A stretch of DNA of 64,000 nt from Actinomycetales bacterium (GCA_002919305.1 PKFB01000015.1:793-64792); one strand, 5' to 3'; counted from the stretch's first letter, positions 31,605 through 58,524 are shown. Notes: generated from the letters alone by a model not told the origin. Program-made: numbers and translations.

Positions 31605-33739
31605 CTCACGGGGCCCTGGAGGTCTGGCCTGGCTCCCCTCACCCCCTCGGCGCGACGGTGACCGCCGAGGGGGTGAACTTCGCGCTGTGGAGCGCCGGGG
31701 CCGAAGCGGTCGAGCTGTGCCTGTTCGGCACCCCGGAGGATCCGGACGGGCCGGAGCGGCGTATCCCGCTGACGGAGCAGACCTACCACATCTGGCACGG
31801 TTTCGTGCCCGGGATCCGGCCGGGGCAACGCTACGGGTACCGGGTTCACGGGCCGTGGCGCCCCTCCGAGGGGCTACGGTTCAACCCCGCCAAACTGCTG
31901 GTCGATCCCTACGCCCGGGCCTACGCCGGCACCGTCACCTACACCGACGCGATCTACGGGCAGCGCCCGGACGGTACGCCCGACCCGACCGACTCCGCCC
32001 CGTTCGTGCCCCGCTCCATCGTGGTGGCGCCCGATCCCAATCCCAACCTCGGCCCTCGGCCCCGGGTGCCGTGGGAGGACACCATCATCTACGAGGTCCA
32101 CGTCAAAGGGTTCACACAGCTGCATCCGGGGGTCCCCGAACATCTCCGCGGCACCTACGCCGGTTTCGCTCATCCCGCCGCGATCGAGCATCTGCTCAAG
32201 TTGGGTGTCACCACGGTGGAGCTGCTCCCGGTCCACCACCGGATCTCCGAGCCGTTCCTGGCCACCCGTGGGCTGAGCAACTACTGGGGGTACAACACCC
32301 TGGGCTTCTTCGCGCCTGACGCCCGGTTCTCTGCCAGCGGCGACGGCGGCGACCAGGTCGCTGAGTTCAAATCCATGGTGCGGGCGCTGCACGAAGCCGG
32401 GCTCGAGGTGATCCTGGACGTCGTCTACAACCACACCGCCGAAGGCCCACCGGACGGGCCGATGCTGGCGTTCAAAGGCATCGACAACCAGCGGTACTAC
32501 CGGCTGGATCCGAATGACTGGTCCCGGTACCGGGACTACACGGGTACCGGGAACACCCTGGATCTGCGGCAGTTCCACCCGCTTCAGCTGGTCATGGACT
32601 CGCTCCGGTACTGGATCACCGAGATGGGGGTGGACGGCTTCCGTTTTGACCTGGCTTCAGCCCTAGCCCGCTCCCTGCACGATGTGGACCGGCTGTCGTC
32701 GTTCATGGCCGTCGTTCACCAGGACCCTGTGGTGAGCCGGTGCAAGCTGATCGCTGAGCCGTGGGACCTGGGGCCTGGCGGCTACCAGGTCGGTGAGTTC
32801 CCGCCCTTGTGGACGGAGTGGAACGGGCGCTACCGGGACGCGGTGCGGGACTTCTGGCGCGGGGCCCCCACCGGGATGGCCGAACTGGGGTGGCGGCTGA
32901 CCGGCTCGGCGGACCTGTACGCCGATGACGGTCGCAAACCGTTCGCGTCGATCAACTTCATCACCGCCCACGACGGCTTCACGATGCGGGACCTGGTCAC
33001 CTACGAGTACAAGCACAACGAGGCCAACGGCGAGCACAACCGTGACGGCACCGACGACAACCGCGCATACAACTTCGGGGTGGAGGGCGAGACCGACGAC
33101 CCGGAGATCAACGCCGCCCGTCGGCGGCAGGTGCGCAACCTGTTGGCCACACTGCTGCTGTCCACCGGGGTGCCGATGCTGGTGGCCGGCGACGAGATGT
33201 ACCGCACCCAGCACGGCAATAACAACCCCTACTGCCAGGACAACGAGATCTCCTGGTTGAACTGGGACCTGGATGACCACGCCCGTACCTTGTTGGACTT
33301 CACCCGCCGGCTGGTGACGTTGCGCCGTCAGTCACCGGTGTTCCGGCAGCCCGCTTTCTTCCTGGGAGAGCCGGCGGGGGACGACGGCACCGTGAAGGAT
33401 CTAGCGTGGTTCCGTCCCGACGGTCACGAAATGACCCCTGCTGACTGGCACTCCCCCCAGGCCCGCACCCTCGGTATGTACCTCAATGGTGAGCGGCTGC
33501 GGCAGCGTGGTCCTCGTGGGGAGGAGATCACGGACGACTCCTACCTGCTATGGCTCCACGCTGGACAGTCTCACGTGGACGTTGAATTGCCGGCCGGCGT
33601 GTGGGCTGACGGGTATGACGTGGTGTTTGACACCGCCGCGGAGGACGGGGACGGTGACCGGAGGATTCCAGCCGGCACTTCACTGCGTCTGGTGCCCCGT
33701 TCCGTTGTTCTGCTGCGGGTCATCCGTTCCACGACCTGA
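31601..33739 (+). CDS. glgX: Glycogen debranching enzyme GlgX (GH13)
   Basis: MTHGALEVWPGSPHPLGATVTAEGVNFALWS; GH13 regions VILDVVYNHT, GVDGFRFDLA, LIAEPWD, FITAHDGF. Start moved to ATG 31601, which overlaps the permease stop (ATGA). Confidence 0.9.
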   Translation: MTHGALEVWPGSPHPLGATVTAEGVNFALWSAGAEAVELCLFGTPEDPDGPERRIPLTEQTYHIWHGFVPGIRPGQRYGYRVHGPWRPSEGLRFNPAKLLVDPYARAYAGTVTYTDAIYGQRPDGTPDPTDSAPFVPRSIVVAPDPNPNLGPRPRVPWEDTIIYEVHVKGFTQLHPGVPEHLRGTYAGFAHPAAIEHLLKLGVTTVELLPVHHRISEPFLATRGLSNYWGYNTLGFFAPDARFSASGDGGDQVAEFKSMVRALHEAGLEVILDVVYNHTAEGPPDGPMLAFKGIDNQRYYRLDPNDWSRYRDYTGTGNTLDLRQFHPLQLVMDSLRYWITEMGVDGFRFDLASALARSLHDVDRLSSFMAVVHQDPVVSRCKLIAEPWDLGPGGYQVGEFPPLWTEWNGRYRDAVRDFWRGAPTGMAELGWRLTGSADLYADDGRKPFASINFITAHDGFTMRDLVTYEYKHNEANGEHNRDGTDDNRAYNFGVEGETDDPEINAARRRQVRNLLATLLLSTGVPMLVAGDEMYRTQHGNNNPYCQDNEISWLNWDLDDHARTLLDFTRRLVTLRRQSPVFRQPAFFLGEPAGDDGTVKDLAWFRPDGHEMTPADWHSPQARTLGMYLNGERLRQRGPRGEEITDDSYLLWLHAGQSHVDVELPAGVWADGYDVVFDTAAEDGDGDRRIPAGTSLRLVPRSVVLLRVIRSTT

Positions 33740-34637
33740 CGGGGCCCACGTCCTGGTGTCCCGCCTGGTATCTCGCGGCGGCTGCCGCCTTCTCCCGAAT
33801 CGGATCGATCAATTTTGCTGCCGCACTACGCGGAGGAGCGCCATCGCCGCCGCTGTTGGGGCTATCACGCAGTTTGATATCCCGAGTGGGCGTGATCCAC
33901 GCTGAGACAGCGATGATCCTTTATGTGGATGGCGACGGATACGCGCCTGACAACCACCTACACTTCCGCCCGCACGAAATTCTCTCTTCTCGTAACAGAA
34001 TCATGACAGGCGTACCGTTCTTTCGTTAAGTTAAAGTTTAAAACAGCACAGCCACCCTCTACCACACTCACTTTCAGACGCGGGCGCGCGACACGCCACA
34101 TGACACCACATATTTCGTCACTTAACCGAGAATTACCTCCTCGGAAGCCTCGGCGCTCCCATCAGAAACATCGACGGGAAACGCACCACACCCCCTGTGA
34201 CCAGGACCTACCCCCACGACGGATCCTTCAATGGCGTTGAATGCACCTCAGGAAAACGTTATGAAATTTTTTACATGATCAAGTCATCGTGAACGACGCC
34301 CTTTCCAGCATCACGGCGACCACCACACGAGCGAACCTCATCCTTAGAAAACAACCAAATCACTGTCAGGAATCCGCACCCCTTTACAGCGATGGTTCAT
34401 CTCACTCCCCCGCCGACGGCATTATTCCGCCGCGAGCCTACGCCCCATCCCCGCAAGAGATCTCATCTCGAGACACCCACCGACCTCCATTCCCCAGCCC
34501 AGTTTTCCCTCACACAACAGCGTGATACCCGCATGGATCAACGTGTTTCATCTTGCGTTCACATCATTACCTCCTTACCGTTAGTCAAGCCAAGCTAACG
34601 GTGGGTATACGTCGGAACGCCGGCGCTGGGGAACGGT

Positions 34638-35822
34638 GTGGGTGAACAGACCAGGATGACGCGCCCGTCATGGCTCTCCCGCCTCGTCCCTAGCCTTCTG
34701 GGGTTACTCCTCACCGCCGTGGTCGTCACCGTGGCCGGCCGACTGACCCGTGACCAGGTCCCGGGCTGGCAGCTGGCGCTGGCCTTAGTGACCGTGATCG
34801 TGGCGGCGTTAGTGCATCTGCACCACGCATGGCACGTCATGACCGCTCGCCGCCCGATCGCCTGGCCGGTGACGCTGGCGTTGCTGGCGGCGCTGACCTG
34901 CCTCCCCTTGCCGTGGCTCGCACTGGGCTGGGACTGCGTCCCCGGGCTCTTGGTGGGCTCGGTGTTGATGCTGCTGCCTTTCCCCCGCTCCTGGTGCGTC
35001 GTAGCTGTGCTCCTCTGCGCGGAGTTCATGACGTTGCACCTCAGTGGTGTCCCCCGCGGCCCCGACTTAAACGGGATGGTCGCCGCCTGGGTGGTGGGCG
35101 TACTCAGCTGTGGCCTAGTCCGATTAGGCGCCACGGCCGACCAGCCCGTGGCCACCCGGGTGGACTTAGCGCGGGCCGCGGTGATGCGCGAGCGTGTACG
35201 TTTCGCACGGGATCTGCATGACCTGGTGGGTCACCAACTGTCCGCGATCGCCCTACGCTGCGAGGTCGCGCTTCGCCTGTTGGACCGGGACCTCGAACGC
35301 GCCCGGGCCGAGATGGGCACCATGCTCACGCTCATCCGGCAAGCCGTCGCCGACGCCCGTGCGACTGCCCACGGATACCGCGAGATGTCGGTGGCCGCGG
35401 AGCTGGCCTCGGCCCAGTCGATCCTGAAGGCCGCGGGGATCGACTGCCGCGTCGACCTCGACGGCGCGGTGCCGACAGGTGCGGCGGGTCAGGCCCTGGC
35501 CGGCGTCATCCGAGAGTGTGTCACGAACGTGCTGCGCCACAGCCGGGCCCGCCGATGCCGGATCGAGATGGCGCGTCGGGACCGTTGGCTTCGGCTCGCG
35601 ATCTCTAACGACGGTGCCAGCGGGCCGCTGCAGCCGACCGGGATCGGTCTGGACAACATCCACCACCGAATCACCTCTGTCGGTGGGTGGTCGACGGTGC
35701 AACAGCGACCAGACGGCTGGTTCCAGGTGGTCGCCGAGATCCCGGTCTCGCAGTACTCCCTCGCCGATCATGACGAGCGCTCACTGGGCGCTATGCATTC
35801 TTCACTGTCAGAACATGACTGA
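34638..35822 (+). CDS. Membrane sensor histidine kinase, HisKA_3 (NarX/DesK-like) class
   Basis: About 5 N-terminal TM helices; H-box RFARDLHDLVGHQLSAIAL; HATPase_c ECVTNVLRHS...ISNDG...GIGLDNI. The start may be ATG 34656. Confidence 0.85.
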   Translation: MGEQTRMTRPSWLSRLVPSLLGLLLTAVVVTVAGRLTRDQVPGWQLALALVTVIVAALVHLHHAWHVMTARRPIAWPVTLALLAALTCLPLPWLALGWDCVPGLLVGSVLMLLPFPRSWCVVAVLLCAEFMTLHLSGVPRGPDLNGMVAAWVVGVLSCGLVRLGATADQPVATRVDLARAAVMRERVRFARDLHDLVGHQLSAIALRCEVALRLLDRDLERARAEMGTMLTLIRQAVADARATAHGYREMSVAAELASAQSILKAAGIDCRVDLDGAVPTGAAGQALAGVIRECVTNVLRHSRARRCRIEMARRDRWLRLAISNDGASGPLQPTGIGLDNIHHRITSVGGWSTVQQRPDGWFQVVAEIPVSQYSLADHDERSLGAMHSSLSEHD

Positions 35823-36057
35823 TGCGACTGGTTCCACCCCCCTCCCTCATTGGATCGTGTCTATGCACGACGGAACACACCTCACGGCGCATACCGCGTG
35901 AATCGTGGTTTTAAGCGCATACCTGGTTGTTCCGTGCCGTTATTGCACGTGGGTCATTGGTGAGGCAACCGGAGCACGCCGTCGCACGGCAGGTCCGCTG
36001 TGGCTGCGTGCCCGGTTGCCCGGCACCTGGCCCGGCGCCTGGATCGGAGGGAAGGTC

Positions 36058-38673
36058 GTGGACAAGCGCTACGAGTCGTTCTGCCTGGTCGATCCGCTGT
36101 TTTATGACCTGCCCACCTCCGCCGGTGCCGATCTTGACTTCCCTATCGCCTCCCGAGCGTTGCCGCCAGGCTGGCGTCGGACACGTCATGAAGACTGGGT
36201 GATCCTGGACCCCCCGAAGGGCGACCTGCCCCCACAGGGCTGGAAGATCCACGTCTCGGCCACTCTGGAGAACGCTGAGCGGGTACTGGACACCGTCTGG
36301 GGTTACTGCGTGGCGCGCCAGCTGCCTTTCAAGTTCCTCAGTGGACGTCACGTACTCCAGCTCCGGAACGCCAAGTACGCCCACCGCGGCTCCAGCGGCA
36401 AATTGGTCACGATCTATCCGGCCGATGAGGCCACTCTGGAAACGGTCTGTACAGAGCTGGGCGAGGCCCTGGCCGGAGAGCCCGGCCCGTACATCCTGTC
36501 CGATCTGCGCTGGGGCCCCGGTCCTCTCTATGTCCGCTACGGCGGCTTCGCCCGGCGTTACTGCGTCTCCGATCGCGGTGAGCTGGTGCCGGCCATCGCT
36601 CGCCCTGACGGCACCCTGGTGCCGGATCGGCGCGGCCCGGTGTTCTCGTTGCCCGACTGGGTGACGCTGCCGGACTTTTTAGCGCCCCACCTGGCGGCCC
36701 GGCAGGCCACGACCGTCAACGACCTGCCCTATGAGATCAGGCAGGTGCTGCACTTCTCCAACGGCGGCGGCCTGTACCGGGGGGTGGATCGCCGAACCGG
36801 CCAAACCGTCATCCTGAAGGAAGCCCGCCCGCACGCCGGGCTGGACGCCACCGGTGCGGACGCGGTGGCCCGCCTGGAACGGGAACGCATGATCCTGGAA
36901 CGACTCGCCGGTTTAGACGTCGTTCCGGCCCTCATCGACTACGTCGTTGTCGGGGAGCACCACTTCCTCGTTGAGCAGTTCGTTGAAGGCTCCCCCTTGA
37001 ACAAACTGTTCGCCGACCGGTACCCCCTGTCCGATCCGTCGGCCGGTCCGGAGCGGTACGCGCAGTACCGCCGCTGGGCGATGGGGATCTACGAGCGGGT
37101 CGAGGCCGCGGTGCACGCCCTGCACCAACGGGGTGTCGTCTTCGGAGACCTGCACCTTTACAACATCCTGGTCGGCCCCGACGACCGGATCACGCTGATC
37201 GACTTCGAGGTGGCCTCGCTGATTGACGAGCAACGTCGTCCCGGCATCGGCAATCCCGGTTTCAGCGCCCCCGCCGACCGGACCGGTTTCGACATTGACC
37301 GGTACGCGCTGGCGTGCCTCCGTCTGGCGCTGTTCTTGCCGATGACCGCGCTGATCAAGCTGGCGCCGGGCAAGGCCGCCCACTTCGCCCAGATCATTCA
37401 GGAACAGTTCGATGTTCCGGATGACTTCCTGCGGCCGGCGGTCCACACCATCGATCAGGCTGACGCCCCCGACGCCTCCGCGCTTCCCCCCTCGGTCGTC
37501 GAGTTCGCCCCGGCCCCGAACACCTGGGAATGCAGCCGTGACCAGATCGCCCGCTCGATCCTGGCCAGCGCCACCCCGGACCGGTCGGATCGGCTGTTCC
37601 CCGGTGACATCGAACAGTTCACCAGCGGCGGTCTGTCCTTTGGGTACGGAGCCGCGGGCGTCCTGTACGCGCTGGCGGTGACCGGAGCCGGACGCTACCC
37701 CGCGTACGAGCAGTGGCTCCTGGAGCGGGTCCAGCGCCCCGGGCCCGGCGCGCGGCTGGGGTTCTACGACGGTTTACACGGCATCGGGTACGCGCTTGCC
37801 GAACTGGGGTACCGCCAGCAGGCACTCGATCTGATCGAGATGGTCCACTCGGAGCGCTGGGAGGACCTCAGCCTGGATCTGGCGAGCGGCTTGGCGGGAG
37901 TGGGCCTGAACCTAGCGCATCTGGCGCAGCTCACCGGTGAGTCGCACTTGCGGGATCTGGCGCTGCGGGTGGCCGAGGTCGTGGCGTCCCGCTTAGGAGG
38001 CGTCACAGATGTCCCCACCGTGTCGGGCGGCCGGCATCCATACGCCGGACTCATGCGTGGCTCCTCTGGACCGGCGTTGCTGTTCATCCGGTTGTATGAG
38101 CTCACCGGCCAGACAGCGTTACTTGATTACGCCGCCACCGCGCTGCGTCAGGATCTACGGCGGTGTGTGCGCCGCCCCGACGGCAGCCTGCACGTCAACG
38201 AAGGCTGGCGCACCTTGCCCTACCTGGATCGCGGCAGCGCCGGGATCGGTATGGTGCTCGACCACTACCTGCTGCACCGGGAGGACGAGGAGTTCGCCCA
38301 AGCCTCCGGCGACATCCTGCCGGCCGCGCTCTCTCCGTTCTATATCCAGCCGGGCTTGTTCGCCGGTCGCGCCGGGCTGATTGTGTACCTGGCTCACCGG
38401 TACGGCCCGGCAGCCGCCTCCCAACCTGACACGCTCCGGCAGATGCGGCGCCTGAACTGGCATGCCATCGCGCACGCCGATGGCATCGCCTTCCCGGGTG
38501 AACAGCTGCTACGGCTCTCGACCGACCTGGCCACCGGCTCCGCCGGGATCCTGCTCGCCCTCGGTGCGGTCCTCAACGACCAGCCGATCGGGCTGCCGTT
38601 CCTGCACTCCCCTCGGTCGCATCAGCGGTCGGTCGGCTCCATGCCGGCTTCCCCGCTCGCTGGTGCACGGTGA
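36058..38673 (+). CDS. ramC: Class III lanthipeptide synthetase (LanKC; RamC/AmfT-like): lyase, Ser/Thr kinase and Zn-ligand-less cyclase domains
   Basis: Lyase region: YESFCLVDPLFYD, GWKIHVSA. Kinase region: VILKEARPHAG, FGDLHLYNILV, LIDFE. The LanC-like repeats (GLMRGSSGPA, LDRGSAGIG, LATGSAGIL) lack Cys/His ligands. Start moved to GTG 36058 (GGAGGGAAGG upstream); the track ORF begins at 35905. Confidence 0.85.
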   Translation: MDKRYESFCLVDPLFYDLPTSAGADLDFPIASRALPPGWRRTRHEDWVILDPPKGDLPPQGWKIHVSATLENAERVLDTVWGYCVARQLPFKFLSGRHVLQLRNAKYAHRGSSGKLVTIYPADEATLETVCTELGEALAGEPGPYILSDLRWGPGPLYVRYGGFARRYCVSDRGELVPAIARPDGTLVPDRRGPVFSLPDWVTLPDFLAPHLAARQATTVNDLPYEIRQVLHFSNGGGLYRGVDRRTGQTVILKEARPHAGLDATGADAVARLERERMILERLAGLDVVPALIDYVVVGEHHFLVEQFVEGSPLNKLFADRYPLSDPSAGPERYAQYRRWAMGIYERVEAAVHALHQRGVVFGDLHLYNILVGPDDRITLIDFEVASLIDEQRRPGIGNPGFSAPADRTGFDIDRYALACLRLALFLPMTALIKLAPGKAAHFAQIIQEQFDVPDDFLRPAVHTIDQADAPDASALPPSVVEFAPAPNTWECSRDQIARSILASATPDRSDRLFPGDIEQFTSGGLSFGYGAAGVLYALAVTGAGRYPAYEQWLLERVQRPGPGARLGFYDGLHGIGYALAELGYRQQALDLIEMVHSERWEDLSLDLASGLAGVGLNLAHLAQLTGESHLRDLALRVAEVVASRLGGVTDVPTVSGGRHPYAGLMRGSSGPALLFIRLYELTGQTALLDYAATALRQDLRRCVRRPDGSLHVNEGWRTLPYLDRGSAGIGMVLDHYLLHREDEEFAQASGDILPAALSPFYIQPGLFAGRAGLIVYLAHRYGPAAASQPDTLRQMRRLNWHAIAHADGIAFPGEQLLRLSTDLATGSAGILLALGAVLNDQPIGLPFLHSPRSHQRSVGSMPASPLAGAR

Positions 38674-38727
38674 CCCTCCATCCACTCCGGGTGCCCGACG
38701 GCGCCCCGTCCCGAAAGAGGTGTTCCC

Positions 38728-38841
38728 ATGGCTCTGCTCGACCTTCAAGGCTTGGAGCCGCCCCAGGACGCTCCCTCGCACGGCGGTAGCGCCCTCAGCC
38801 TCGCGCTGTGTAGCGAGTTCAGCCTGCTGCTGTGCCTGTGA
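38728..38841 (+). CDS. ramS: Class III lanthipeptide precursor 1 (37 aa): MALLDLQGLEPPQDAPSHGGSALSLALCSEFSLLLCL
   Basis: Below the ORF-track size cutoff; translated by me. AAAGAGG RBS 7 nt upstream. LLDLQ leader motif, then two back-to-back S-x-x-S-x-x-x-C motifs (SALSLALC, SEFSLLLC). The N-terminus resembles AmfS (MALLDLQ...). Confidence 0.8.
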   Translation: MALLDLQGLEPPQDAPSHGGSALSLALCSEFSLLLCL

Positions 38842-38847
38842 CCGCTT

Positions 38848-38908
38848 CCCGGAGGGCACGGGGCCCTTTCTGGACGTCCCTTCTGACGCCGACGCCCCGC
38901 CCTCCGGG
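38848..38908 (+). terminator. Imperfect hairpin (9 + 6 bp with a 2-nt bulge) 7 nt after the precursor-1 stop; candidate attenuator or processing site
   Basis: CCCGGAGGG (38848-38856) pairs with CCCTCCGGG (38900-38908). CGGGGC (38859-38864) pairs with GCCCCG (38894-38899). Confidence 0.35.
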
Positions 38909-38986
38909 GCCCATGGACAACCGGCCCTTCCACGTTCCTGCCCCCGGTGCCGGTGATGACCGATCTCACGGAAGGAGGTGTACGCC

Positions 38987-39106
38987 ATGGCGATCCTCGA
39001 CCTGCAGGGCCTGGAGCTGGCCGACGAGGCCCAGTACGGCGGCCACAGCAGCCACAGCCACAGCTGCGGTGGCGGCGGCAGCTACCTGAGCCTGCTGCTG
39101 TGCTGA
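38987..39106 (+). CDS. Class III lanthipeptide precursor 2 (39 aa): MAILDLQGLELADEAQYGGHSSHSHSCGGGGSYLSLLLC
   Basis: Translated by me. GAAGGAGG RBS 8 nt upstream and the same ILDLQGLE leader motif. C-terminal SYLSLLLC is a canonical motif. The upstream SSHSHSC only fits a shortened S-x-x-S-x-x-C. Confidence 0.8.
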   Translation: MAILDLQGLELADEAQYGGHSSHSHSCGGGGSYLSLLLC

Positions 39107-39129
39107 CAGACGGGTCAGTGTGACTGGCC

Positions 39130-39201
39130 GGCTGTGTCCGCGTCCGCTCCGGACACAGCCTTCGTCGGCCCTGGACTCGCGCCACCGGTCCAGGGCCGAC
39201 G
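39130..39201 (+). terminator. Two strong adjacent hairpins between precursor 2 and the first ABC gene; candidate partial terminator
   Basis: GGCTGTGTCCG (39130-39140) pairs with CGGACACAGCC (39150-39160). A 14-bp stem joins 39163-39176 and 39188-39201 (core GGCCCTGGAC / GTCCAGGGCC). Confidence 0.5.
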
Positions 39202-39254
39202 CCGCGTACCGGATTACCTGTGGATACCTGTGCGGCCCGCCCCGAGGAGTACCC

Positions 39255-40943
39255 GTGGATCAACCGCGGCCCACCGCCGACCGGATATTGCTGCGCACCG
39301 CCGGCCACGGAGGCCCGTGGGTGGTGTTGCTGGTGGTCGCCACGGTGGCCGGTGCTGTCGCCGAGCTCCTGTTGCCCGCCGCGGTGGGGGTAGCCTTGGA
39401 CCGGGTGCTCACCGCGGCCCCGGCCACCGGTTGGCTTATCGGGTGTGTTCTGCTGATCGGGGTGATCGCCGGCGGTGAAGTCCTCACCGACATCGCTTCC
39501 GGCGTCAGTGGCGCGCGAGCGACGAGTTGGCTGCGCCGTCACCTGGTTGCCCATGTCCTCGCCGCCGGGCCGCACACCACCCGCCGTTTCGAGGCTGGGG
39601 ACCTGGTCAGTCGGATCGTCGCCAGCGGCGCCGATGTCGGAGGAGGCGCGACCCAGGCGGTTCTGACGCTGGCCGCTCTGCTCCCCGCTATCGGCAGCGT
39701 GGTCGCCCTGCTGGTGATCGACCCATGGCTGGCTATGACCTTCATCAGCGGCATGGCCGTGATCGGGGTCCTGGTGCACGGCTTTGTCCGCGACGCTACC
39801 GATATCACGGCCCGCTACCAGCGCAGTCAGGCGGCGATCGCCGCCGGTCTGCTCGATGCGTTGACCGGCGCGCGGACCATCGCCGCCGCCGGCACGGTGC
39901 GTCGGGAGTGTGCGCGGGTGTTGGCTCCGTTATCCGCGCTCCGCGTTGACGGAGCAGGAATGTGGCGTACCCAGACCACCATGTCCTGGCGGGCGGCGTT
40001 GGTGATGCCGTCCCTGCAGCTGGTGGTGATCGCGGTGGCTGGCCTGGAGCTGTGGTGGGATCGCCTCAGCCCGGGAGAGCTGCTGGCGGCCAGTCGGTAC
40101 GCGGTGCTCGGCGGTGGCCTGACCGCCGCGGTGACCTTCGCCAACCGGTGGGCGCGGGCGCGGGGCGCCGCCCAGCGGGTCGCTGACCTGCTGGCCACCC
40201 CGGTCATCCGGTACGGAGCGGCTCGCCTGCCGGAGGGCGGTGGCCGGCTGGAGTTCCGCGGCGTCACCGCCGGTGACCCGCCGGTCCTGTCGGGGTTGGA
40301 CTTGACGATCCCCGCTGGATTGACGGTGGCCGTGGTGGGGCGGTCCGGCTCCGGCAAATCGCTGCTGGCGGCGTTGGCCGGCAGGCTGGTCGATCCCGTG
40401 GCGGGGGAGGTGCGGTTGGACGGAGTCCAACTGTCCACAGTTGACCGTGACGCGTTGCGGAACGCCGTGACGTACGCCTTCGCCCGACCGGTCCTCATCG
40501 GGGACACCGTGGGCGACGCCATCGCGTTGGGCCCGTATCCGGCCGCTCCGGCGGCGGTACGCAGCGCGGCGCGGGCCGCCTGCGCCGAGGAGTTCATCGC
40601 GCGGATGCCAGCCGGGTACGCCACTCCGCTGTCAGCGGCCCCGATGTCCGGCGGGGAGCGGCAACGTGTCGGCCTGGCCCGGGCCTTCGCGCATCCTGGA
40701 CGGCTGCTGATCCTCGACGACGCGACCTCAAGCCTGGACACCGCCACCGAGAGCCGGGTGGCCGCCGTGTTGACCGGACATACCCGGACCCCGTCTCAGA
40801 CTCGCCTGGTGATCGCGCACCGCGCCAGCACCGCCGCCCGCGCCGACCTGGTGGCGTGGTTGCAGGACGGGAAGGTCCGGGCCCTAGCCCCACACCATCA
40901 GCTGTGGCATGACCCCGACTATCGGGCGGTGTTCCATGAGTGA
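39255..40943 (+). CDS. ramA: ABC exporter, fused TMD-NBD half-transporter (RamA/AmfB-like)
   Basis: Six-TM ABC_membrane region; Walker A GRSGSGKS, signature MSGGERQRVGLA, Walker B LLILDDATS. Start moved to GTG 39255 (GAGGAG 5 nt upstream), downstream of the hairpins. The track ORF begins at 39120. Confidence 0.8.
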   Translation: MDQPRPTADRILLRTAGHGGPWVVLLVVATVAGAVAELLLPAAVGVALDRVLTAAPATGWLIGCVLLIGVIAGGEVLTDIASGVSGARATSWLRRHLVAHVLAAGPHTTRRFEAGDLVSRIVASGADVGGGATQAVLTLAALLPAIGSVVALLVIDPWLAMTFISGMAVIGVLVHGFVRDATDITARYQRSQAAIAAGLLDALTGARTIAAAGTVRRECARVLAPLSALRVDGAGMWRTQTTMSWRAALVMPSLQLVVIAVAGLELWWDRLSPGELLAASRYAVLGGGLTAAVTFANRWARARGAAQRVADLLATPVIRYGAARLPEGGGRLEFRGVTAGDPPVLSGLDLTIPAGLTVAVVGRSGSGKSLLAALAGRLVDPVAGEVRLDGVQLSTVDRDALRNAVTYAFARPVLIGDTVGDAIALGPYPAAPAAVRSAARAACAEEFIARMPAGYATPLSAAPMSGGERQRVGLARAFAHPGRLLILDDATSSLDTATESRVAAVLTGHTRTPSQTRLVIAHRASTAARADLVAWLQDGKVRALAPHHQLWHDPDYRAVFHE

Positions 40944-42757
40944 AGCAACCTGCGATGCTTAGGAGCTCGACAACCTCGGATGGGGGGTTACGGCCCCCCG
41001 AGCGGCCAGCCGCCGTCCTGATCGCTGCTCTGCGTCGTCACCCCCGTCGTCTGGTCCAGTTGGCCGCCTGGTCGGTGGTGGAGGCGCTCCCCGCTCTGGT
41101 GTCCGGTCTGGCGGTGGCGCGTGCCCTGGACACCGGCTTCCTGGCGGGGCGGCTTGATCTGGGCCTGCTGTGGCTGGGCCTGCTCGCCCTGGCCGTGGTG
41201 GCGGGGGCCGTGGCCACCCGGGCTTTATATCCGACGCTGGCCAGCATCGTCGAACCGTTCCGGGACGACCTGATCCGGCGCGTGGTGACCGGGGCGATCC
41301 GGCGGGCGACGCACCCGCCGTACCATGCCGACACCGCCGCCGTCGCCCGCCTCACCCACCAGGTGGAGACCGTGCGGGACACGTTTGCCGGTCTGGTGAT
41401 GGTGGTGCGGTCGTTCCTGTTCACCGCCACCAGCGCCCTCGTGGGCCTGGTCAGCCTCGCGCCGGTCATCGCGCTCCTGGTGACGCCGCCCCTGCTGGCC
41501 GGGCTGGCCTTATTCGGGGCCGGACTGCCCGCCCTGGCCCGCCGGCACCGCGCCTTGGTGGTAGCCGACGAACACGTCGCCGCGGCGACCGCCGAGCTCG
41601 CGGAGGGCCTGCGGGACGTGGTGGCGTGTGGCGCCGAATGGAGCGTCCAGGACCGGGTGGGCCAACGGGTGACCGACCAAGCCACCGCCACCCGCCGTCT
41701 GGCGTACAGCACCGCCCTGCGGACCGCCTCCCTGGCCCTGGGGGGTTGGGTGCCTGTGGCGCTGCTGGTGGTGTCGGCCGAGTGGCTCACGCGGCAGGGG
41801 GTGACCGCCGGGGTCATCGTGGGCTCCGTCACCTATCTGCTCCACGGCCTGATGCCCGCATTGAACGCGTTGATTCACGGCGTGGGGGCCAGCGGGGTGC
41901 GGCTGGTTGTCACCCTGTCCCGGCTGCTGGAGACCTCGTCCGTGCCCTGGGCGCTCCATGACGCCCCTGCTCCCCGCCCCAGGCGACAGGCCCCGCTACC
42001 CCGTGGTTTTCAAGTGGTCACCCACGGGTTGACCTTCGCCTACGGCCCCCACGCCGCCCCGATCCTCGACGATCTGGACTTGGTGATCCCCGAAGGAGAG
42101 CACCTGGTGATCGTCGGCCCCAGCGGCATCGGGAAATCCACGCTGGCCGGGCTGCTGGCTGGTCTACTCACCCCCACCCGGGGCACGGTCACCCTCGGCG
42201 ATGTGGCGGTCACGGCGCTGTCAGCGGCGGAACGGGCCCGGTGGCGGGTCCTCATCCCTCAGGAGGCGTACCTGTTCGCCGGCTCCCTCGCCGCCAACCT
42301 GACCTACCTGCGTCCGGACGCTCCCAAGGCCATGGTGGACGCCGCCGTGGAGGCCCTTGGGCTGTGGGACCTGGAGCGCCGGCTGGGTGGCCGCCACGTG
42401 GAGTTGAACAGTACGCTCCGCGCCACGCTCTCCCCCGGGGAACGGCAGCTGATCGCGCTGGCGCGCTGTTATCTGTCGCCCGCGCCGGTGGTGATTCTCG
42501 ATGAGGCGACCTGCCACCTGGACCCGGTCGCCGAAGCACGAGTCGAGGAGGCGTTCGCCCGACGCCCCGGCACACTGATCGTGATCGCACACCGGATCAG
42601 TTCGGCGCGCCGGGCCGACCGGATCCTGGTGCTCGACGGCGCCTCGACGGCCGTGGGTACACACCACGATCTGGTCGCCACCTGCCCGTCCTACCGGGAC
42701 CTGGTCAACCACTGGAACCCAGTCTCTCCCGGCGCGGCCCCGGCTCCCCTGCCCTGA
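40940..42757 (+). CDS. ramB: ABC exporter, fused TMD-NBD half-transporter (RamB/AmfA-like)
   Basis: Walker A GPSGIGKST, signature LSPGERQLIALA, Walker B VVILDEATCHLD. GTGA overlap with the preceding ABC gene. Confidence 0.8.
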   Translation: MKQPAMLRSSTTSDGGLRPPERPAAVLIAALRRHPRRLVQLAAWSVVEALPALVSGLAVARALDTGFLAGRLDLGLLWLGLLALAVVAGAVATRALYPTLASIVEPFRDDLIRRVVTGAIRRATHPPYHADTAAVARLTHQVETVRDTFAGLVMVVRSFLFTATSALVGLVSLAPVIALLVTPPLLAGLALFGAGLPALARRHRALVVADEHVAAATAELAEGLRDVVACGAEWSVQDRVGQRVTDQATATRRLAYSTALRTASLALGGWVPVALLVVSAEWLTRQGVTAGVIVGSVTYLLHGLMPALNALIHGVGASGVRLVVTLSRLLETSSVPWALHDAPAPRPRRQAPLPRGFQVVTHGLTFAYGPHAAPILDDLDLVIPEGEHLVIVGPSGIGKSTLAGLLAGLLTPTRGTVTLGDVAVTALSAAERARWRVLIPQEAYLFAGSLAANLTYLRPDAPKAMVDAAVEALGLWDLERRLGGRHVELNSTLRATLSPGERQLIALARCYLSPAPVVILDEATCHLDPVAEARVEEAFARRPGTLIVIAHRISSARRADRILVLDGASTAVGTHHDLVATCPSYRDLVNHWNPVSPGAAPAPLP

Positions 42758-43241
42758 CTGCCCGGCTGGAGCAGCGGATTCCGCTCCGGCGAGGGGCGCG
42801 GAGGCGGTGAGGTGGCGGTCGGGTCAGCGCCCCGTCCCGCCCGATCCGCCGCGGTTCGGGCGGGCGCGCCGTGCCCCGCGCCCCGCATCACAGCGCCTGT
42901 CACTGACGCCCAGCGGGGTGCGTCGACGCGCCCGTGGCATGCCCTACACCGCCATACCGGATACGCTGCCGGCGCCTGAGCAGCGCGTGCCGCACGATCG
43001 TGTGGTCACGATCGTGCCTGCTCATCGATTCCTGACTTGGATCGATGTCCGCACCATGAGCTGATAAACATGGCCTGATCAATCAGTCAGAGCTGCCCAG
43101 CGGTACGGCGCTATCCCTCACGCAAGGGGACCGTATTCCAGATTCCGGAATCTATCCCGCCACTGCGTCCGACCGCCGATGACGCCACCAATCGCCACTG
43201 TTTCTCTATCAGAAATCCAATACCCCCAATATTCGGGAATG

Positions 43242-43973
43242 TCAGATCCAACCGGCGTTTTGGGCGATCCGGACCGCCTCGATACGGGTCCGACCGCCGG
43301 TTTTGCAGATAATGGTGGACAGATAATTACGGACCGTGCCCCGGGCCAGTGACAGCCGCTCGGCGATCTCGCCCACCGGGGCTCCCTCCGCCGCCAAGCG
43401 CAGCACGTCCAACTCCCGGTTGGTGAAGGGATTAGGGGCGGCGTCCAAAGCAGCCACCGCCAGTTCAGGATCGATCACCCGCTCACCGCGGGCGACGCGC
43501 CGAATGCTGTCGGCGAGCTGGGCGGGAGGTGCGTCTTTGACCACAAAACCCGCGACAGAGGCATCGAGGGCACGCCGCAGAGTCCCCGGCGCCCCCAACG
43601 CGGTCAGAATCAGGGTTCGACATTGAGGTAACTCGCGACGTAACAGACGGGCCGCCTCGATGCCATCCATCCCCGGTAGATCGATGTCGATGACCGCCAC
43701 ATCGGGCCGGTGCTCCAAAGCGGCCGCGACGATCTGATCGCCCCTGGCCAGCTCACTGACTACTTCAATGTCGTCCTCGTACGACAGCAGAGCCACCAGC
43801 GCACCGCGTACCAGTCCCATATCCTCGGCGAGAAGGATCCGAATCGCCTCGGCCCCCTCCCGCCGGCGCTCACCACGTCCCGTCCGAGCCCGAGGCGGCC
43901 AGATGTCCTCATCGGACAGTTCGGCGACGCGGGTCGACACTGATCCCACTCTTCTCATCGCGCAATACCTCAC
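43242..43973 (-). CDS. ramR: NarL/FixJ (LuxR-type HTH) response regulator, convergent to the lanthipeptide operon (RamR/AmfR position)
   Basis: Receiver: IRILLAEDMGLV...VAVIDIDLPGMDG...LTALG. Output: LTNRELDVLRLAAEGAPVGEIAERLSLARGTVRNYLSTI. The N-terminal extension is probably shorter than the track ORF. Confidence 0.8.
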   Translation of the reverse strand: MRYCAMRRVGSVSTRVAELSDEDIWPPRARTGRGERRREGAEAIRILLAEDMGLVRGALVALLSYEDDIEVVSELARGDQIVAAALEHRPDVAVIDIDLPGMDGIEAARLLRRELPQCRTLILTALGAPGTLRRALDASVAGFVVKDAPPAQLADSIRRVARGERVIDPELAVAALDAAPNPFTNRELDVLRLAAEGAPVGEIAERLSLARGTVRNYLSTIICKTGGRTRIEAVRIAQNAGWI

Positions 43974-44180: not shown

Positions 44181-45425
44181 TCAGCTGACCAGGTGCACCG
44201 GGAGCTCTGTCAATCCCCGGATGAAACTGGGGCGCCACGTCAACTGCTCCCACGGCACCGCCAGCTGGATGTCCTGAAAACGCCGCAGCAACCCACTGAG
44301 TGCGATCTCTGTCTCCATACGCGCCAGGGCCGCGCCGATACAAAAGTGCGTGCCGTGCCCGAAGCTCAGATGAGGATTAGGGGACCGGTCAGGTATCAGC
44401 TCCTCCGGCCGCGGGAAGACCTCGGGATCCCGGTTGGCCGACCCCACGGCCAACAACACGATGTCCCCCTTGGGGATCGGCGCCCCGGCGATCGTGGTGT
44501 CGGCCGCGACGAACTTCATGATGCCCGGCACGATCGGGCTGTCATAGCGCAGCATCTCCTCCACCATGGGCGCCACCAGGCCCGGATCGGCCCGCACCGC
44601 ATCGAGCACCTGCGGGTGACGCAGCAGCGCCAACATCCCGTTGCCGATGAGATTCACCGTGGTCTCATGACCGGCGGTGAGCAGCAGACTCACCGTGGAC
44701 AACAGCTCTATCTCGGTCAATCCACCGTGCTGATCCCGGGCCGCGATGAGTTCACTGACCACATCGTCGGCGGGCTGTCGGCGGCGCTGCGCGATGAGGT
44801 CGGTCAGATACTGATGGATCATCTCGCGGGCCCGCGCGGCGTTGGCCACGGTCGCCTCATCCACCCGGTACGCCAGGACCGCACCGGTCCACTCCCGCAT
44901 CTGATCTCGGTCCTGCTCCGGGATCCCCAGCAGCTCACAAATTACGGTGATCGGTAACGGGAATGCCAAGCCGGCGATCAGGTCCACCGGTCCGGTGACG
45001 CACGCCATCTTCTCCAGCAGCGCGTCGGTCACCTGGATGATCCGGGGACGCAGCCGCTGCACGCGGCGAGCGGTGAAGGCGGATGCGGTGAGGCGACGCA
45101 GCCGGGTGTGCCGCGGCGGGTCGGTCCGCAGCATGTTGTGCAGATTCTCCGGCCGCCATCGCCCGTCGCCGGCGTCCTCCCCGGCTCCGAAGGCCGCGGT
45201 CGCGTACCGAGGATCATTGCTGAGGGCCGGGTTGGCCAGCGCCGCCCGGACATCCCGGTAGCGGGTGACCAGCCACACGGGCACACCGTCGGGCATCTCC
45301 ACCCGGTGCACAGGACCGGCCTGGCGCAGGGCCTGGTAGGCCGGGTACGGGTCAGGTCCGTCCGGCAGGGAGATCACACCCTCATCTTCCGCTGTGTCCC
45401 CCGCTGAGCCAAGACGCGTACCCAT
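44181..45425 (-). CDS. Cytochrome P450 monooxygenase
   Basis: I-helix LLTAGHETT, EMLRY (ExxR), heme loop FGHGTHFCIGAALAR. Confidence 0.9.
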   Translation of the reverse strand: MGTRLGSAGDTAEDEGVISLPDGPDPYPAYQALRQAGPVHRVEMPDGVPVWLVTRYRDVRAALANPALSNDPRYATAAFGAGEDAGDGRWRPENLHNMLRTDPPRHTRLRRLTASAFTARRVQRLRPRIIQVTDALLEKMACVTGPVDLIAGLAFPLPITVICELLGIPEQDRDQMREWTGAVLAYRVDEATVANAARAREMIHQYLTDLIAQRRRQPADDVVSELIAARDQHGGLTEIELLSTVSLLLTAGHETTVNLIGNGMLALLRHPQVLDAVRADPGLVAPMVEEMLRYDSPIVPGIMKFVAADTTIAGAPIPKGDIVLLAVGSANRDPEVFPRPEELIPDRSPNPHLSFGHGTHFCIGAALARMETEIALSGLLRRFQDIQLAVPWEQLTWRPSFIRGLTELPVHLVS

Positions 45426-45515
45426 GTGCGAATGTGGATCGGAAGCAGAATGGGTACGCGTCGCCCCACCGGTCAGGAATATCCCACTGCCCCGGGTGGA
45501 CCAGGGAGGAGCGGC

Positions 45516-48083
45516 TCAGGCGTAGGTGACCAGTCCGAGCTCGGCAGGGCTGGTCAGCAACTCGTGCCGCGGCACCACCCGGACCGTGTAGCCGAAGGAG
45601 CCGGCGCGCGTCAGCGGGATATCCGCCTCGTAGTGGTAGACCCCGTCGCTGTCCCCGACGTACTCCATCGGCTGTACCGCCACGTCGATCAACGTGTCGT
45701 CGGTGCCGTCCACCCGACCCGAACAGGCCTGGACCTCGACCTCCTTCACCGACAGCTCCCCGAGCACCACTTCGGCGCGCAGGTGCAGTCGCGCTCCCAG
45801 CTGCGGGGTATCTCCGGCTCCGGAAGACTCCACGTGCACCACCCGAATGTCGCTCCAGGCGCGTCGCGCCCGGGAGCGGAACGCCGCCAGCGCGCGGGCG
45901 CCCGCGTACCCCTCCTCCCGCATCCGGCGCGAGGATTCGCTGGCCGGCTGGTACAGCCGCTCGACGTACTCCCGGACCATCCGGGAGGCCAGTACCTGCG
46001 GCCCCAGCGAGGTCAACGTGTGCCGCACCATCGCCACCCAGCGCGCCGGGATGCCCTGCTCGTCGCGGTCGTAAAACAGTGGCGCGACCTGAGTCTCGAT
46101 CAAGTCGTAGAGCGCGGCCGCCTCCAGATCATCCCGTCGGTTGGGGTCAAGCACCCCTCGGGCGGTGGGGATCGACCAGCCGTTGCGGCCGTCGTACATC
46201 TCGTCCCACCAGCCGTCCCGGATGGACAGGTTCAGTCCGCCGTTGAGCGCGGCCTTCATGCCGGAGGTACCGCACGCCTCCAGGGGGCGCAGCGGATTGT
46301 TCAGCCAGACGTCACTGCCCGCGACGAGGTGCCGGGCCAACCCCATGTCGTAGTCGGGCAGGAACACGATCCGGTGCCGCACCGCGGGGTCATCGGTGAA
46401 CCACACCATCTCCTGGATCAGCTTCTTGCCCCCGTCATCGGCCGGGTGCGCCTTCCCCGCGATGATGATCTGGATGGGCTGCCGGGGGTTGAGCAGCAGC
46501 CGCTTGAGCCGCTCGCGGTCCCGCAGCATCAGCGTCAGACGCTTGTAACTGGGGACCCGGCGTGCGAAGCCGATGGTGAGGATGTCGGGGTCCAGCGCTT
46601 CATCGATCCACCCCAGTTCGGCTTCGGTGGCGCCTCGCGCCAGGTGCGAAGCGCGCAGTCGACGCCGCGCCTCGGCGACCAGCTCCGCCCGCATCTGCCG
46701 GCGGATCCGCCAGATCTCGGCGTCGCTGAGCTCGTTCACGATGTCAAAGCCCGGGTCCCCGCCGTACGCGGCGGTGTCGATCCCTTCGCGGGTGATCAGT
46801 TCATGCCCGCTGCGTGACAGCCAGGTAGCGGCATGGACCCCGTTGGTGACCGAGGTGATCGGGATCTCGTCAAGATCGAATCCGGGCCACAGGGAGGCGA
46901 ACATCTCCCGGCTGACGGCCTCATGCAACCGGGACACCCCGTTGCAGCGCTGCGCCAACCGCAGCCCCATGTGCGCCATGTTGAACACGTTGGGGTCGTG
47001 TTCGGCGCCCAGATCCAGGATCCGATCTACCGGCACCCCAGGACATACCGCGCCGTCGGCGAAGACTCGGGCGATGAGCTCTCGCGGGAAACGGTCGATA
47101 CCAGCCGGTACCGGGGTGTGGGTGGTGAACACCGTCCCGGCGCGGACCGCTTGATGAGCGGCGTCAAAGTCCAGGCCCTCCGTCTCCATCAACTCCCGGA
47201 TCCGCTCCAGGCCCATGAAGCCGGCGTGTCCCTCGTTGGTGTGGTAGACCTCCGGCTCCGGCTCGCCGGTCAGGGCACACCAGGCCCGCAGCGCCCGGAC
47301 CCCTCCGACGCCCAGCAAGATCTCCTGGAGCAGTCGGTGCTCCACCCCGCCCCCGTACAGCCGGTCGGTGACTCCACGCTCCCCCGGCGCGTTCTCCTCG
47401 ATGTCACTGTCGAGCAGCAACAGCCGGACCCGCCCGACCTGGGCCTGCCAAATCTGAGCCCTGAGAGTGCGTCCCTCTGGGAGCGACACCGCCACCTGCA
47501 CCGGGGTGCCGTCCTTATCCCGCAGCAGGGTCAAGGGCAGACCGTGCGGATCGATCGAGGGGTAGTGTTCCTGCTGCCATCCGTCCGGCGTCAGGCTCTG
47601 GGTGAAGTAGCCCGAACGGTACAGCAGCCCCACCCCCACGATCGGGACCCCCAGGTCGCTGGCGGTCTTCAGGTGGTCACCGGCCAGGATCCCCAGGCCG
47701 CCGGAGTACTGCGGCAGCACCTCGGTAAGGCCGAACTCCGGAGAGAAGTAGGCGATGTTACGCGGCATATGGTCGCCGAGGCTCTGGTACCACCGCGGCT
47801 CGGACAGATAACGGGACAGGTCCTCATGCGCGGCGGCCAGACGAGCCCGGAACCCGCTGTCAGCAGCGAGCTCATTGAGCCGGTCGGCGGAGACCTCTCC
47901 GAGCAGACGCACCGGATCGTGGCCTACCCGCTCCCACAATCCCGGATCTATACTCGCAAAAAGATCCAATGTGGACGGATGCCAGGACCAGCGCAGGTTC
48001 ATCACGAGCTCACCCAGGGGAGCGAGCTGGGGCGGCAGGGCGGCACGGACGGTAAACCGACGAAGCGCTCTCACGAACAGCAC
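45516..48083 (-). CDS. glgP: Alpha-1,4-glucan (glycogen/maltodextrin) phosphorylase, GT35, actinobacterial type
   Basis: 855 aa: LGELVMNLRWSWHP, FSPEFGLTEVLPQYSGGLGILAGDHLK, and GKAHPADDGGK containing the PLP lysine. Confidence 0.9.
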   Translation of the reverse strand: MLFVRALRRFTVRAALPPQLAPLGELVMNLRWSWHPSTLDLFASIDPGLWERVGHDPVRLLGEVSADRLNELAADSGFRARLAAAHEDLSRYLSEPRWYQSLGDHMPRNIAYFSPEFGLTEVLPQYSGGLGILAGDHLKTASDLGVPIVGVGLLYRSGYFTQSLTPDGWQQEHYPSIDPHGLPLTLLRDKDGTPVQVAVSLPEGRTLRAQIWQAQVGRVRLLLLDSDIEENAPGERGVTDRLYGGGVEHRLLQEILLGVGGVRALRAWCALTGEPEPEVYHTNEGHAGFMGLERIRELMETEGLDFDAAHQAVRAGTVFTTHTPVPAGIDRFPRELIARVFADGAVCPGVPVDRILDLGAEHDPNVFNMAHMGLRLAQRCNGVSRLHEAVSREMFASLWPGFDLDEIPITSVTNGVHAATWLSRSGHELITREGIDTAAYGGDPGFDIVNELSDAEIWRIRRQMRAELVAEARRRLRASHLARGATEAELGWIDEALDPDILTIGFARRVPSYKRLTLMLRDRERLKRLLLNPRQPIQIIIAGKAHPADDGGKKLIQEMVWFTDDPAVRHRIVFLPDYDMGLARHLVAGSDVWLNNPLRPLEACGTSGMKAALNGGLNLSIRDGWWDEMYDGRNGWSIPTARGVLDPNRRDDLEAAALYDLIETQVAPLFYDRDEQGIPARWVAMVRHTLTSLGPQVLASRMVREYVERLYQPASESSRRMREEGYAGARALAAFRSRARRAWSDIRVVHVESSGAGDTPQLGARLHLRAEVVLGELSVKEVEVQACSGRVDGTDDTLIDVAVQPMEYVGDSDGVYHYEADIPLTRAGSFGYTVRVVPRHELLTSPAELGLVTYA

Positions 48084-48155
48084 ACCTTACCCGCGACGCC
48101 ACGGACTACCCGGCAGATCGGCACCTTCTTACTGAAAGTTTCACCAAATCCGCCC

Positions 48156-49328: not shown

Positions 49329-49716
49329 CCGACCCTCCGGCTCCGTCCCGAACCGTGATCGCCACGGCCGGTCTGTTCTGCGCGAACAGCTAGTCTTAAG
49401 GAAGGTTTACTATTATCTTCTCCCGAGGCACTAGCTTACGATCACCGCGGTCCCCGAAGGCGCAGTGGAACGCGGGGTAAGGGACTAAAAGCGCCGGTCA
49501 TCCGGTGACGCCCTTCCCCTCCCGTTCACCCCCTTTCCCATCCTGTCCCACCCCATCCACGCCCTGATGCTGTGAGCCCGAGCGGCGACCGTCCTGACGC
49601 ATGGCGCTTCGATCGCGATGTGCCGCTCATCGGGTGTCGGGCCGCGCCGTCACGGACGGAGCCGGCTTGTCCCCGGGGTGCTCAACCGATGACCCTGACC
49701 TGACTGTGGAGGAAGC

Positions 49717-51210: not shown

Positions 51211-51338
51211 TCTTGTCCTGATGAGGTGACGTGGTGGGCCGACGGGCTGATGAACCTTGTGAGGCGACCTGATGAACGCGGAAGTTGATCTGCGCGGCAC
51301 GCTGCGCATCAGGCCACGGCCCACTACCGTGAACACCG

Positions 51339-53330: not shown

Positions 53331-53455
53331 GATGCGGACACTCGGCGTCTGCCCCTCACCGGCAATAGCAACAGATGTGGGCCCTGGTGTGCCCGTGGTA
53401 CGCCGACCACTGGCTCCGGCAGGGTGTCCACCGGTGCAACGTGTGAGGTGAAATC

Positions 53456-56661: not shown

Positions 56662-56711
56662 TTTCCTGTTGTTCCGCGTTGTTCCGCGCCAGCCCACCCT
56701 CACCCGGCGAG

Positions 56712-58487: not shown

Positions 58488-58524
58488 GCGGTGGCCGGTG
58501 AGCCCCTCACTCACCGGCCACCGC
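58488..58524 (-). terminator. 15-bp perfect-stem hairpin downstream of the 58596 gene
   Basis: GCGGTGGCCGGTGAG (58488-58502) pairs with CTCACCGGCCACCGC (58510-58524) around a 7-nt loop. On the minus strand it is followed by CCTTTGTC. Confidence 0.5.

Follow-up and report, generated by a model that had tools for sequence, protein, structure and literature searches.

What does an uncultured actinomycete make when a single lanthipeptide synthetase gene is followed by two dissimilar precursor genes, and what switches this system on? The question is raised by positions 34,638 to 43,973 of a 64,000-nucleotide stretch of DNA from Actinomycetales bacterium (GCA_002919305.1, PKFB01000015.1:793-64792), the whole of which we refer to as the window. 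An earlier sequence-only reading described this range as a RamC/AmfT-type class III lanthipeptide island with lanKC, two precursors, two ABC exporters and a convergent LuxR regulator. We conclude that the locus, together with the mechanism we infer and the products we predict for it, very probably is a chromosomal cluster of the ramCSAB/ramR type (SapB/AmfS family). As such it joins a well-populated and well-understood family whose clusters standard tools would detect, and more than 4,000 sequences named "SapB/AmfS family lanthipeptide" are catalogued at NCBI (PMC13380574). Its distinguishing features are two dissimilar cores for one enzyme, a His-rich core of an Actinomadura type, an adjoining DesK-like kinase and an enrichment in TTA codons.

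The evidence begins with the synthetase. The gene at 36058..38673 (+) encodes an 871-residue LanKC in which hidden Markov model (HMM) and PDB matches identify a lyase domain, a Ser/Thr kinase domain and a LanC-like, zinc-free cyclase domain. In Pfam it matched RamC_N (1e-85, an OspF/SpvC-like lyase), Pkinase (1.8e-11) and LANC_like. The profile check of LanKC, LANC_like and Pkinase models against this interval was therefore positive throughout, and the three-domain architecture was borne out. Every string that had been quoted for the enzyme is present in its translation (YESFCLVDPLFYD, GWKIHVS, VILKEARPHAG, FGDLHLYNILV, LIDFE, GLMRGSSGPA, LDRGSAGIG and LATGSAGIL). The start codon is a GTG at 36058 preceded by the Shine-Dalgarno sequence GGAGGGAAGG, and independent metagenome gene calls agree on this start. 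The PDB matches were 9wop (4e-93), the CurKC kinase domain 7wj6 (9e-85) and ThurKC 8sap (3e-81). In a search of 5.8 billion proteins, the next-best LanKC proteins were about 60-62% identical and came from Actinomadura, metagenome-assembled genomes (MAGs) of Pseudonocardiaceae, and Micromonospora.

Assignment to class III rather than class IV rests on several agreeing lines of evidence. The class III model NF038151 (lanthi_synth_III) scored 1132.5 bits against a cutoff of 575, whereas the class IV (LanL) model NF038150 (lanthi_synth_IV) reached only 393 bits against a cutoff of 650. We mapped catalytic residues by alignment to ThurKC, using the residues that have been mutagenised in that enzyme (PMC10604976). 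In the lyase domain, K63, H65, K92, K106, K115, D149, R160 and R192 correspond to ThurKC K65, H67, K94, K108, K117, D152, R163 and R191. The kinase domain keeps the beta3 lysine K254, the alphaC glutamate E276, the catalytic loop D364..N369 and the D382-F-E384 motif. The same alignment places D724 (in YLDRGS) and F768-A769 (in GLFAG) at the positions of NisC C284/C330/H331, and R667 at the position of the catalytic His212 of NisC. The only cysteines in the cyclase domain, at 492 and 703, are not at a ligand site. The sequence-only reading had thus been right that the zinc-binding positions hold no Cys or His, but its third motif, LATGSAGIL, was misplaced and should be GLFAG. Because no Cys or His occupies these positions even after this correction, the class III assignment stands. 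The enzyme is predicted to dehydrate and cyclise both precursors, yielding lanthionine or labionin.

The two small open reading frames (ORFs) that had been proposed as precursors both follow lanKC and belong to the RamS family. Precursor A1 (38728..38841, +) is a 37-residue peptide, MALLDLQGLEPPQDAPSHGGSALSLALCSEFSLLLCL, that matched Pfam RamS with 42.9 bits (E 6.7e-11, cutoff 24.3 bits) and NF033212 (SapB_AmfS_lanti) with 45.9 bits (cutoff 25). Precursor A2 (38987..39106, +) has 39 residues, MAILDLQGLELADEAQYGGHSSHSHSCGGGGSYLSLLLC, and matched RamS with 40.3 bits (E 4.3e-10), NF038159 (lanthi_III_b) with 38.3 bits (cutoff 30) and NF033212 with 32.4 bits. Since the RamS and NCBIfam cutoffs were passed, these matches lie far beyond chance. 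Both ORFs were also called by public metagenome gene callers, and each has a Shine-Dalgarno sequence 8 nt 5' of its ATG (AAGAGG for A1 and GGAAGGAGG for A2). The leaders, MALLDLQGLE in A1 and MAILDLQGLE in A2, contain the LDLQ motif whose role has been described (PMC13380574), and the cores carry ring motifs of the class III form Sx2Sx2-5C (PMC8341899).

The two peptides are 46% identical overall, with most differences in the cores, which are about 40-46% alike. The A1 core consists of two abutting Sx2Sx3C motifs, SALSLALC and SEFSLLLC, encoded by an internal 24-nt direct repeat and followed by a C-terminal Leu. It is very hydrophobic, with a grand average of hydropathy (GRAVY) of 1.4-1.8 against 1.61 for the durhapeptin core. 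An example A1 core, GGSALSLALCSEFSLLLCL, has a computed mass of 1895.97 Da, or 1823.93 Da after loss of four H2O. The A2 core is amphipathic, with a His-rich SSHSHSC (Sx2Sx2C), a Gly4 linker and a hydrophobic SYLSLLLC (Sx2Sx3C) at the end of the peptide. For an example A2 core, GGHSSHSHSCGGGGSYLSLLLC, we computed 2114.93 Da, becoming 2042.88 to 2006.86 Da upon loss of four to six H2O. Both peptides are singletons at 90% clustering, and a full-text search with their core strings, blind to sequences printed in figures, returned no relevant paper; this agrees with the earlier statement that no characterised product has these cores. The His-rich A2 core type as such has no characterised representative.

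Downstream of the precursors are two fused ABC exporters with transmembrane and nucleotide-binding domains (TMD-NBD), as had been described. The first, RamA-like and lacking a peptidase domain, occupies 39255..40943 (+), matches ABC_membrane and ABC_tran, and shares 44-53% identity with the first ABC gene in related loci. Its start had been placed at 39120, the ORF-maximal position. We rejected that start in favor of 39255, which is also the metagenome gene call: five relatives begin 7-10 residues before a conserved ADRLLL motif, and the extension would encode two perfect hairpins. The second exporter, RamB-like (40940..42757, +), matched ABC_tran (1e-23) and aligned over its full length to MsbA-like proteins. 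Its start, supported by N-terminal alignment, overlaps the stop of the first exporter in the GTGA at 40940-40943, as previously noted, with an alternative ATG at 40955. Such 4-nt overlaps are the rule in relatives. Domain searches and metagenome annotations revealed no C39 peptidase domain in the transporters and no protease in the cluster, which fits processing by an unclustered AlpP-type enzyme (PMC8341899).

The spacer between A2 and the first exporter contains two consecutive perfect stem-loops (39130..39201, +), one of 11 bp at 39130-39160 and one of 14 bp at 39163-39201. This 148-nt spacer folds with -76.5 kcal/mol (z -2.8), and 1 of 200 shuffled sequences was as stable. Of 40 related loci (within our numbering L007-L060), 35 likewise form a hairpin with z < -2 in the gap that leads from the last precursor to the first ABC gene; it is therefore a conserved feature of the family. 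The median z was -3.6 and the median best 60-nt minimum free energy -44 kcal/mol. The element presumably acts as an attenuator or stabilises mRNA, which would fit the usual logic of lantibiotic operons, wherein the structural gene is transcribed in excess of the enzyme and transporter message. Another stem-loop is possible after A1 (38848..38908, +), where a perfect 10-bp outer stem, CCCGGAGGGC/GCCCTCCGGG, surrounds an inner stem, albeit with weaker statistics (z -0.5 for the whole spacer; -36 kcal/mol and z -2.3 for the best 60-nt window).

The convergent gene at 43242..43958 (-; alternative start 43973) encodes a NarL/LuxR-family response regulator, in keeping with the earlier description. 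It is RamR-like and contains Response_reg (9e-20) and GerE (7e-11) domains. Its phospho-acceptor pocket is complete, with the acidic E/D, D (VIDIDLPGMDG), T (LILT) and K (VVKD) all present. Between the second exporter and the regulator lies a 484-nt spacer (42758..43241) with a G+C-rich hairpin at 42836-42864 and, at 42992-43017, a perfect 11-bp inverted repeat, GCACGATCGTG/CACGATCGTGC, whose arms are 4 nt apart.

Gene order places this set of genes in the ram family. A genome scan returned 45 loci, and nearly all complete ones have the order lanKC, precursor(s), ABC, ABC and convergent regulator. The proposed ramCSAB/ramR order recurs in at least 45 related loci from genomes and in others from metagenomes, and is shared by more than 50 related actinomycete loci in all. 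The precursors of the 45+ loci all start with M(A/T/S)(L/V)LDLQ, and their cores are of several types: a ...SRASLLLCGDSSLS(I/V)TTCN type, whose members are identical or near-identical to each other, an avermipeptin-type ending in ...LCL, a three-motif type, and others. The first of these we take to be the SapB core. Many Micromonospora loci (L010, L015-L019, L021, L036, L039, L042, L048 and L049) have two or three tandem, near-identical precursors with ...SRASLLLCGDSSLS(I/V)TTCN cores, and SapB-type cores extend well outside Streptomyces.

Taken together, these features suggest how the cluster would operate. The regulator would activate transcription from upstream of lanKC, and the hairpins after the precursor genes would stop or stabilise most transcripts, so that precursor mRNA exceeds the mRNA for enzyme and transporters. 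LanKC would bind the LDLQ leader helix of each precursor, phosphorylate core serines and eliminate the phosphate to give dehydroalanines. Addition of each Cys would then close two rings, lanthionine or labionin, in each peptide. Export of the A1 and A2 peptides would fall to the RamAB-like ABC pair, and an unclustered AlpP-type zinc peptidase would trim the leader, probably leaving ragged N-termini (PMC8341899). On this basis the A1 product is predicted to be a two-ring peptide of very high hydrophobicity, similar to avermipeptin and durhapeptin, and the A2 product an amphipathic peptide in which a Gly4 linker joins a polar His-rich ring to a hydrophobic one. By analogy, A1 and A2 are most likely morphogens with surface activity that assist hyphae in emerging from the aqueous phase. 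For SapB and AmfS such a role is established, and for durhapeptin S26T it has been reported, with hydrophobicity essential for aerial hyphae (PMC13380574). The morphogen reading of A1 is favored because the GRAVY of its core matches that of durhapeptin.

Codon usage provides a further parallel with developmental loci. The kinase gene described below has 6 TTA codons, lanKC 5, the first exporter 1, the second exporter 3 and the regulator 2, whereas five flanking genes (glgX, glgP, glgE, treS and glgB) have none. Counted over ORFs, TTA accounts for 16 of the cluster's 341 Leu codons compared to 21 of 1429 in the rest of the window (Fisher p ~0.001). The majority of amf-like clusters in Streptomyces have a TTA within their ramC- or ramR-like gene, linking them to bldA (PMC4255298). 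By analogy, the enrichment in this cluster, kinase gene included, is suggestive of similar developmental control. Outside the cluster, a 275-residue ORF at 15047-15874 (-) has the highest fraction of TTA in the window (6 of its 34 Leu codons).

Several points weigh against parts of this interpretation. The choice between lanthionine and labionin is not predictable from sequence (PMC8341899, PMC13380574). The hairpins between A2 and the first exporter have no T-tract, and the terminator scan did not call them. That scan, for sigma-70 promoters and T-tract terminators, was itself uninformative, with no promoters found and terminator-like sites at chance level. TTA is not especially scarce in this genome, making up about 1.5% of Leu codons beyond the cluster. 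The host is uncultured, and the exact cluster proteins turn up only in metagenome or MAG contigs, of up to 280 kb. Finally, morphogen function would be an extrapolation from Streptomyces.

The range under study begins with a gene that the sequence-only reading left unmentioned, although all other elements it listed are present. This gene (34638..35822, +) encodes a 394-residue sensor histidine kinase of the HisKA_3 (DesK/NarX) class, with HisKA_3 (7e-16) and HATPase_c domains. Hydropathy indicates about five hydrophobic segments in residues 16-165 with almost no extracellular loops, resembling DesK. Its best homologues are at most 44% identical, DesK-type and mostly from Streptosporangiales, and the kinase is specific to this lineage. 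Whether this kinase controls the cluster is the question on which the evidence is most evenly divided. We see about an even chance that the regulator is paired with the upstream kinase, unlike the orphan RamR. This pairing is favored because the HisKA_3 and NarL classes match and no other response regulator lies near the kinase, because the regulator's phospho-acceptor pocket is complete, and because kinase homologues adjoin convergent NarL regulators. The latter was true of both homologues whose neighborhoods were examined, and the partner regulator of one is 58% identical to the present regulator.

The competing explanation, which we judge only a little short of evenly balanced, is that the kinase is an unrelated neighbor, the regulator is an orphan, and the functional unit consists of lanKC, A1, A2, the two ABC genes and the regulator. 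Four observations count in its favor and against pairing. The kinase is absent from all of the more than 50 related ram-type loci examined. RamR is an orphan NarL-type regulator in S. coelicolor (PMC9739842). The present regulator is about equally similar (55-56% identical) to the regulators of ram-type loci without a kinase. Lastly, database homologues of the kinase sit in other, non-lanthipeptide contexts. A metagenome contig collection contained no close relative of the kinase. However, HisKA_3 kinases normally adjoin a NarL regulator, and the present regulator is the only one within reach and of the matching class. The kinase gene is also on the operon strand, 235 nt 5' of lanKC, and its 6 TTA codons share the enrichment of the cluster. 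The 58% identity to the partner regulator of a kinase homologue likewise argues for pairing.

Control is presumed to act at the intergenic region 5' of lanKC (35823..36057, +), which would hold the promoter and regulator-binding region along with the Shine-Dalgarno sequence GGAGGGAAGG. No sigma-70-like consensus was found in it. We infer its role from the control of ramC by RamR in S. coelicolor (PMC9739842, PMC4255298). Within 300 nt upstream of lanKC, the 8-mer TCGTGACA occurred in 24 of 49 loci compared to a maximum of 12 in shuffled sequences, with many of these loci being close Micromonospora relatives. The 8-mer may be a RamR-type binding half-site. As a shared regulator motif at the present locus it was rejected, as it is absent from the region upstream of this lanKC.

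Another alternative concerns what the peptides do. It is unlikely, in our view, that the same cluster makes peptides that are mainly antimicrobial or otherwise bioactive rather than developmental surfactants. This possibility, with an antibacterial role as the main rival to morphogen function, draws on an avermipeptin analogue reported to be antibacterial, which counts against a morphogen role: activity on Gram-positive bacteria was reported for avermipeptin B, whose core type resembles A1 (PMC6060280). Antiviral or antiallodynic effects are described for other peptides of class III (PMC8341899), and the A2 type has never been characterised. Yet domain searches and metagenome annotations disclosed no immunity or extra tailoring genes at the locus, which is built throughout like the ram/amf morphogen loci. 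Moreover, most class III peptides have weak or no antibacterial activity (PMC8341899), and the morphogen activity of durhapeptin needed extreme hydrophobicity (PMC13380574). A developmental role for both peptides remains our preferred reading.

A less probable explanation concerns the number of substrates. If only one of the small ORFs were a real substrate, the other would be a decaying or silent duplicate, a scenario we consider quite improbable. What speaks for it is that an A2-type peptide is the single precursor directly 3' of lanKC in all of the closest A2-type loci, and that one enzyme would otherwise have to take two quite different cores (~40-46% alike). Against it, A1 and A2 both retain the leader motif, two complete ring motifs and strong ribosome-binding sites, and the G+C content at third codon positions is high in both ORFs (0.82 and 0.95). 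LanKC enzymes also recognise the leader and tolerate variation in the core (PMC8341899). Class III loci with several precursors are common, and two precursors per locus is not new. Micromonospora loci have two or three copies, and the labyrinthopeptin A1/A2 precursors LabA1 and LabA2 presumably share one LabKC. The most novel possibility is a sensor-coupled two-peptide variant of SapB, in which the DesK-like intramembrane kinase would respond to the exported peptides themselves, or to a disturbance of the membrane or surface, and phosphorylate the regulator in an autoinduction loop, with A1 and A2 acting as a joint, e.g., pH- or metal-responsive, surfactant pair; we give it little credence, although if true it would close a loop that orphan-RamR systems lack.

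The cluster is embedded in a chromosomal glycogen/trehalose (GlgE-pathway) region spanning 31517-33739 and 44181-61992 of the window. On one side is glgX (31517-33739). On the other are a P450 gene (44181-45425), directly upstream of the regulator and on the same strand, and glgP (45516-48083), followed by a ROK regulator, a GH3 enzyme, glgE, treS, a maltokinase and glgB. A tailoring role for the P450 is not supported, given that it is absent from all related loci. Upstream of the kinase is a stretch of about 900 nt (33740..34637) without a gene in metagenome annotations. From 33900 to 34500 its GC content is 53-55%, compared to ~67% in the window as a whole, with a strong excess of C over G on the + strand (skew -0.26 to -0.37). 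The stretch may be a promoter/5' or long regulatory region, or an insertion junction, and may or may not belong to the system. Small ORFs in 33740-34637 and 42758-43241 had no Pfam matches, and no Rfam elements or tRNAs were found in the window. Farther away, 57253-58134 (-) encodes a regulator with HTH_31 and DUF5753 domains, adjoined by a 226-residue ORF (58596-59276) with no Pfam match. We take this domain combination to be a WhiJ-like pair typical of actinomycete developmental loci.

For the way in which filamentous bacteria overcome surface tension and grow into the air, SapB-type peptides serve as the model. Given that thousands of such clusters are annotated, one more adds little by itself. 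The value of this locus would instead lie in the pairing of one enzyme with two very different cores, a compact test case for the substrate tolerance of LanKC and for the choice between lanthionine and labionin. In addition, a kinase that may be cognate to a RamR-like regulator could help to reveal which signal turns these morphogens on.

Among characterised systems, the closest in organization are ramCSAB/ramR of S. coelicolor (SapB) and amfTSBA/amfR of S. griseus (AmfS), which have the same gene order and orientation as this locus. They further share the LDLQ leader, a pair of Sx2Sx3C motifs, the presence of TTA codons in both the enzyme and the regulator genes, and a hairpin after the precursor (PMC4255298, PMC13380574). 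The present LanKC is about 52% identical to the enzymes of loci with SapB-type cores. Unlike ram and amf, this locus has two precursors rather than one, its cores are not those of SapB or AmfS, and its host is not Streptomyces. A HisKA_3 kinase stands beside the present operon, whereas RamR in ram is an orphan. The two precursors here are divergent, in contrast to the near-identical copies of the multi-copy Micromonospora loci.

The structurally characterised enzymes CurKC and ThurKC are similar to the present LanKC but come from systems that differ in precursors and biological role. The kinase domain of CurKC, which makes curvopeptin in Thermomonospora curvata, aligns with E 9e-85 (PMC9828337). 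ThurKC of Bacillus thuringiensis aligns over its full length with E 3e-81, and all catalytic residues tested in ThurKC are kept here (PMC10604976). The proposed general base of ThurKC, Asp771, is Ala in the present enzyme, and ThurKC Ser726 is Asp. A different likeness is offered by the labyrinthopeptin cluster of Actinomadura namibiensis, whose layout we take to be labKC-labA1-labA2-labT1-labT2. Like the present locus, it presumably has one LanKC, two different precursors after it and then two ABC transporters. Its cores are unrelated, and it is not known to have a RamR-type regulator or kinase.

Considered separately, the two precursors point to different relatives. A1 resembles the avermipeptin/durhapeptin subgroup (durhapeptin core TGASTASLLSCVSAASVLLCL) in its nearly abutting pair of Sx2Sx3C motifs, C-terminal ...LLCL and high hydrophobicity (PMC13380574, PMC6060280). 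About 50% of core positions are identical, although A1 has no residue between its motifs and has Glu and Phe in the second ring. For A2, a word-indexed search returned only A2 itself and one leader-only match. An exhaustive HMMER search recovered a small A2-type subfamily, 62-76% identical, that includes the precursor of Actinomadura sp. HBU206391. The cluster of this organism (GCA_014323665.1), along with related MAGs, also has the closest named LanKC, at 60% identity. Its precursor, MALLDLQGMELAEIPGGHSSHSKSCGGGGASTLSLLLC, is of the A2 type, with a His-rich Sx2Sx2C, a Gly linker and a C-terminal SxLSLLLC, and the cluster shares the ABC-ABC-regulator order of the present locus. Unlike the present locus, Actinomadura-type loci encode just one precursor and lack both an A1-type peptide and an upstream kinase, and in two of them (L059 and L060) the convergent regulator has no detected receiver domain. 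Since the A2-type precursor stands alone in all its related loci, the present locus looks like an Actinomadura-type cluster that has gained an extra hydrophobic precursor.

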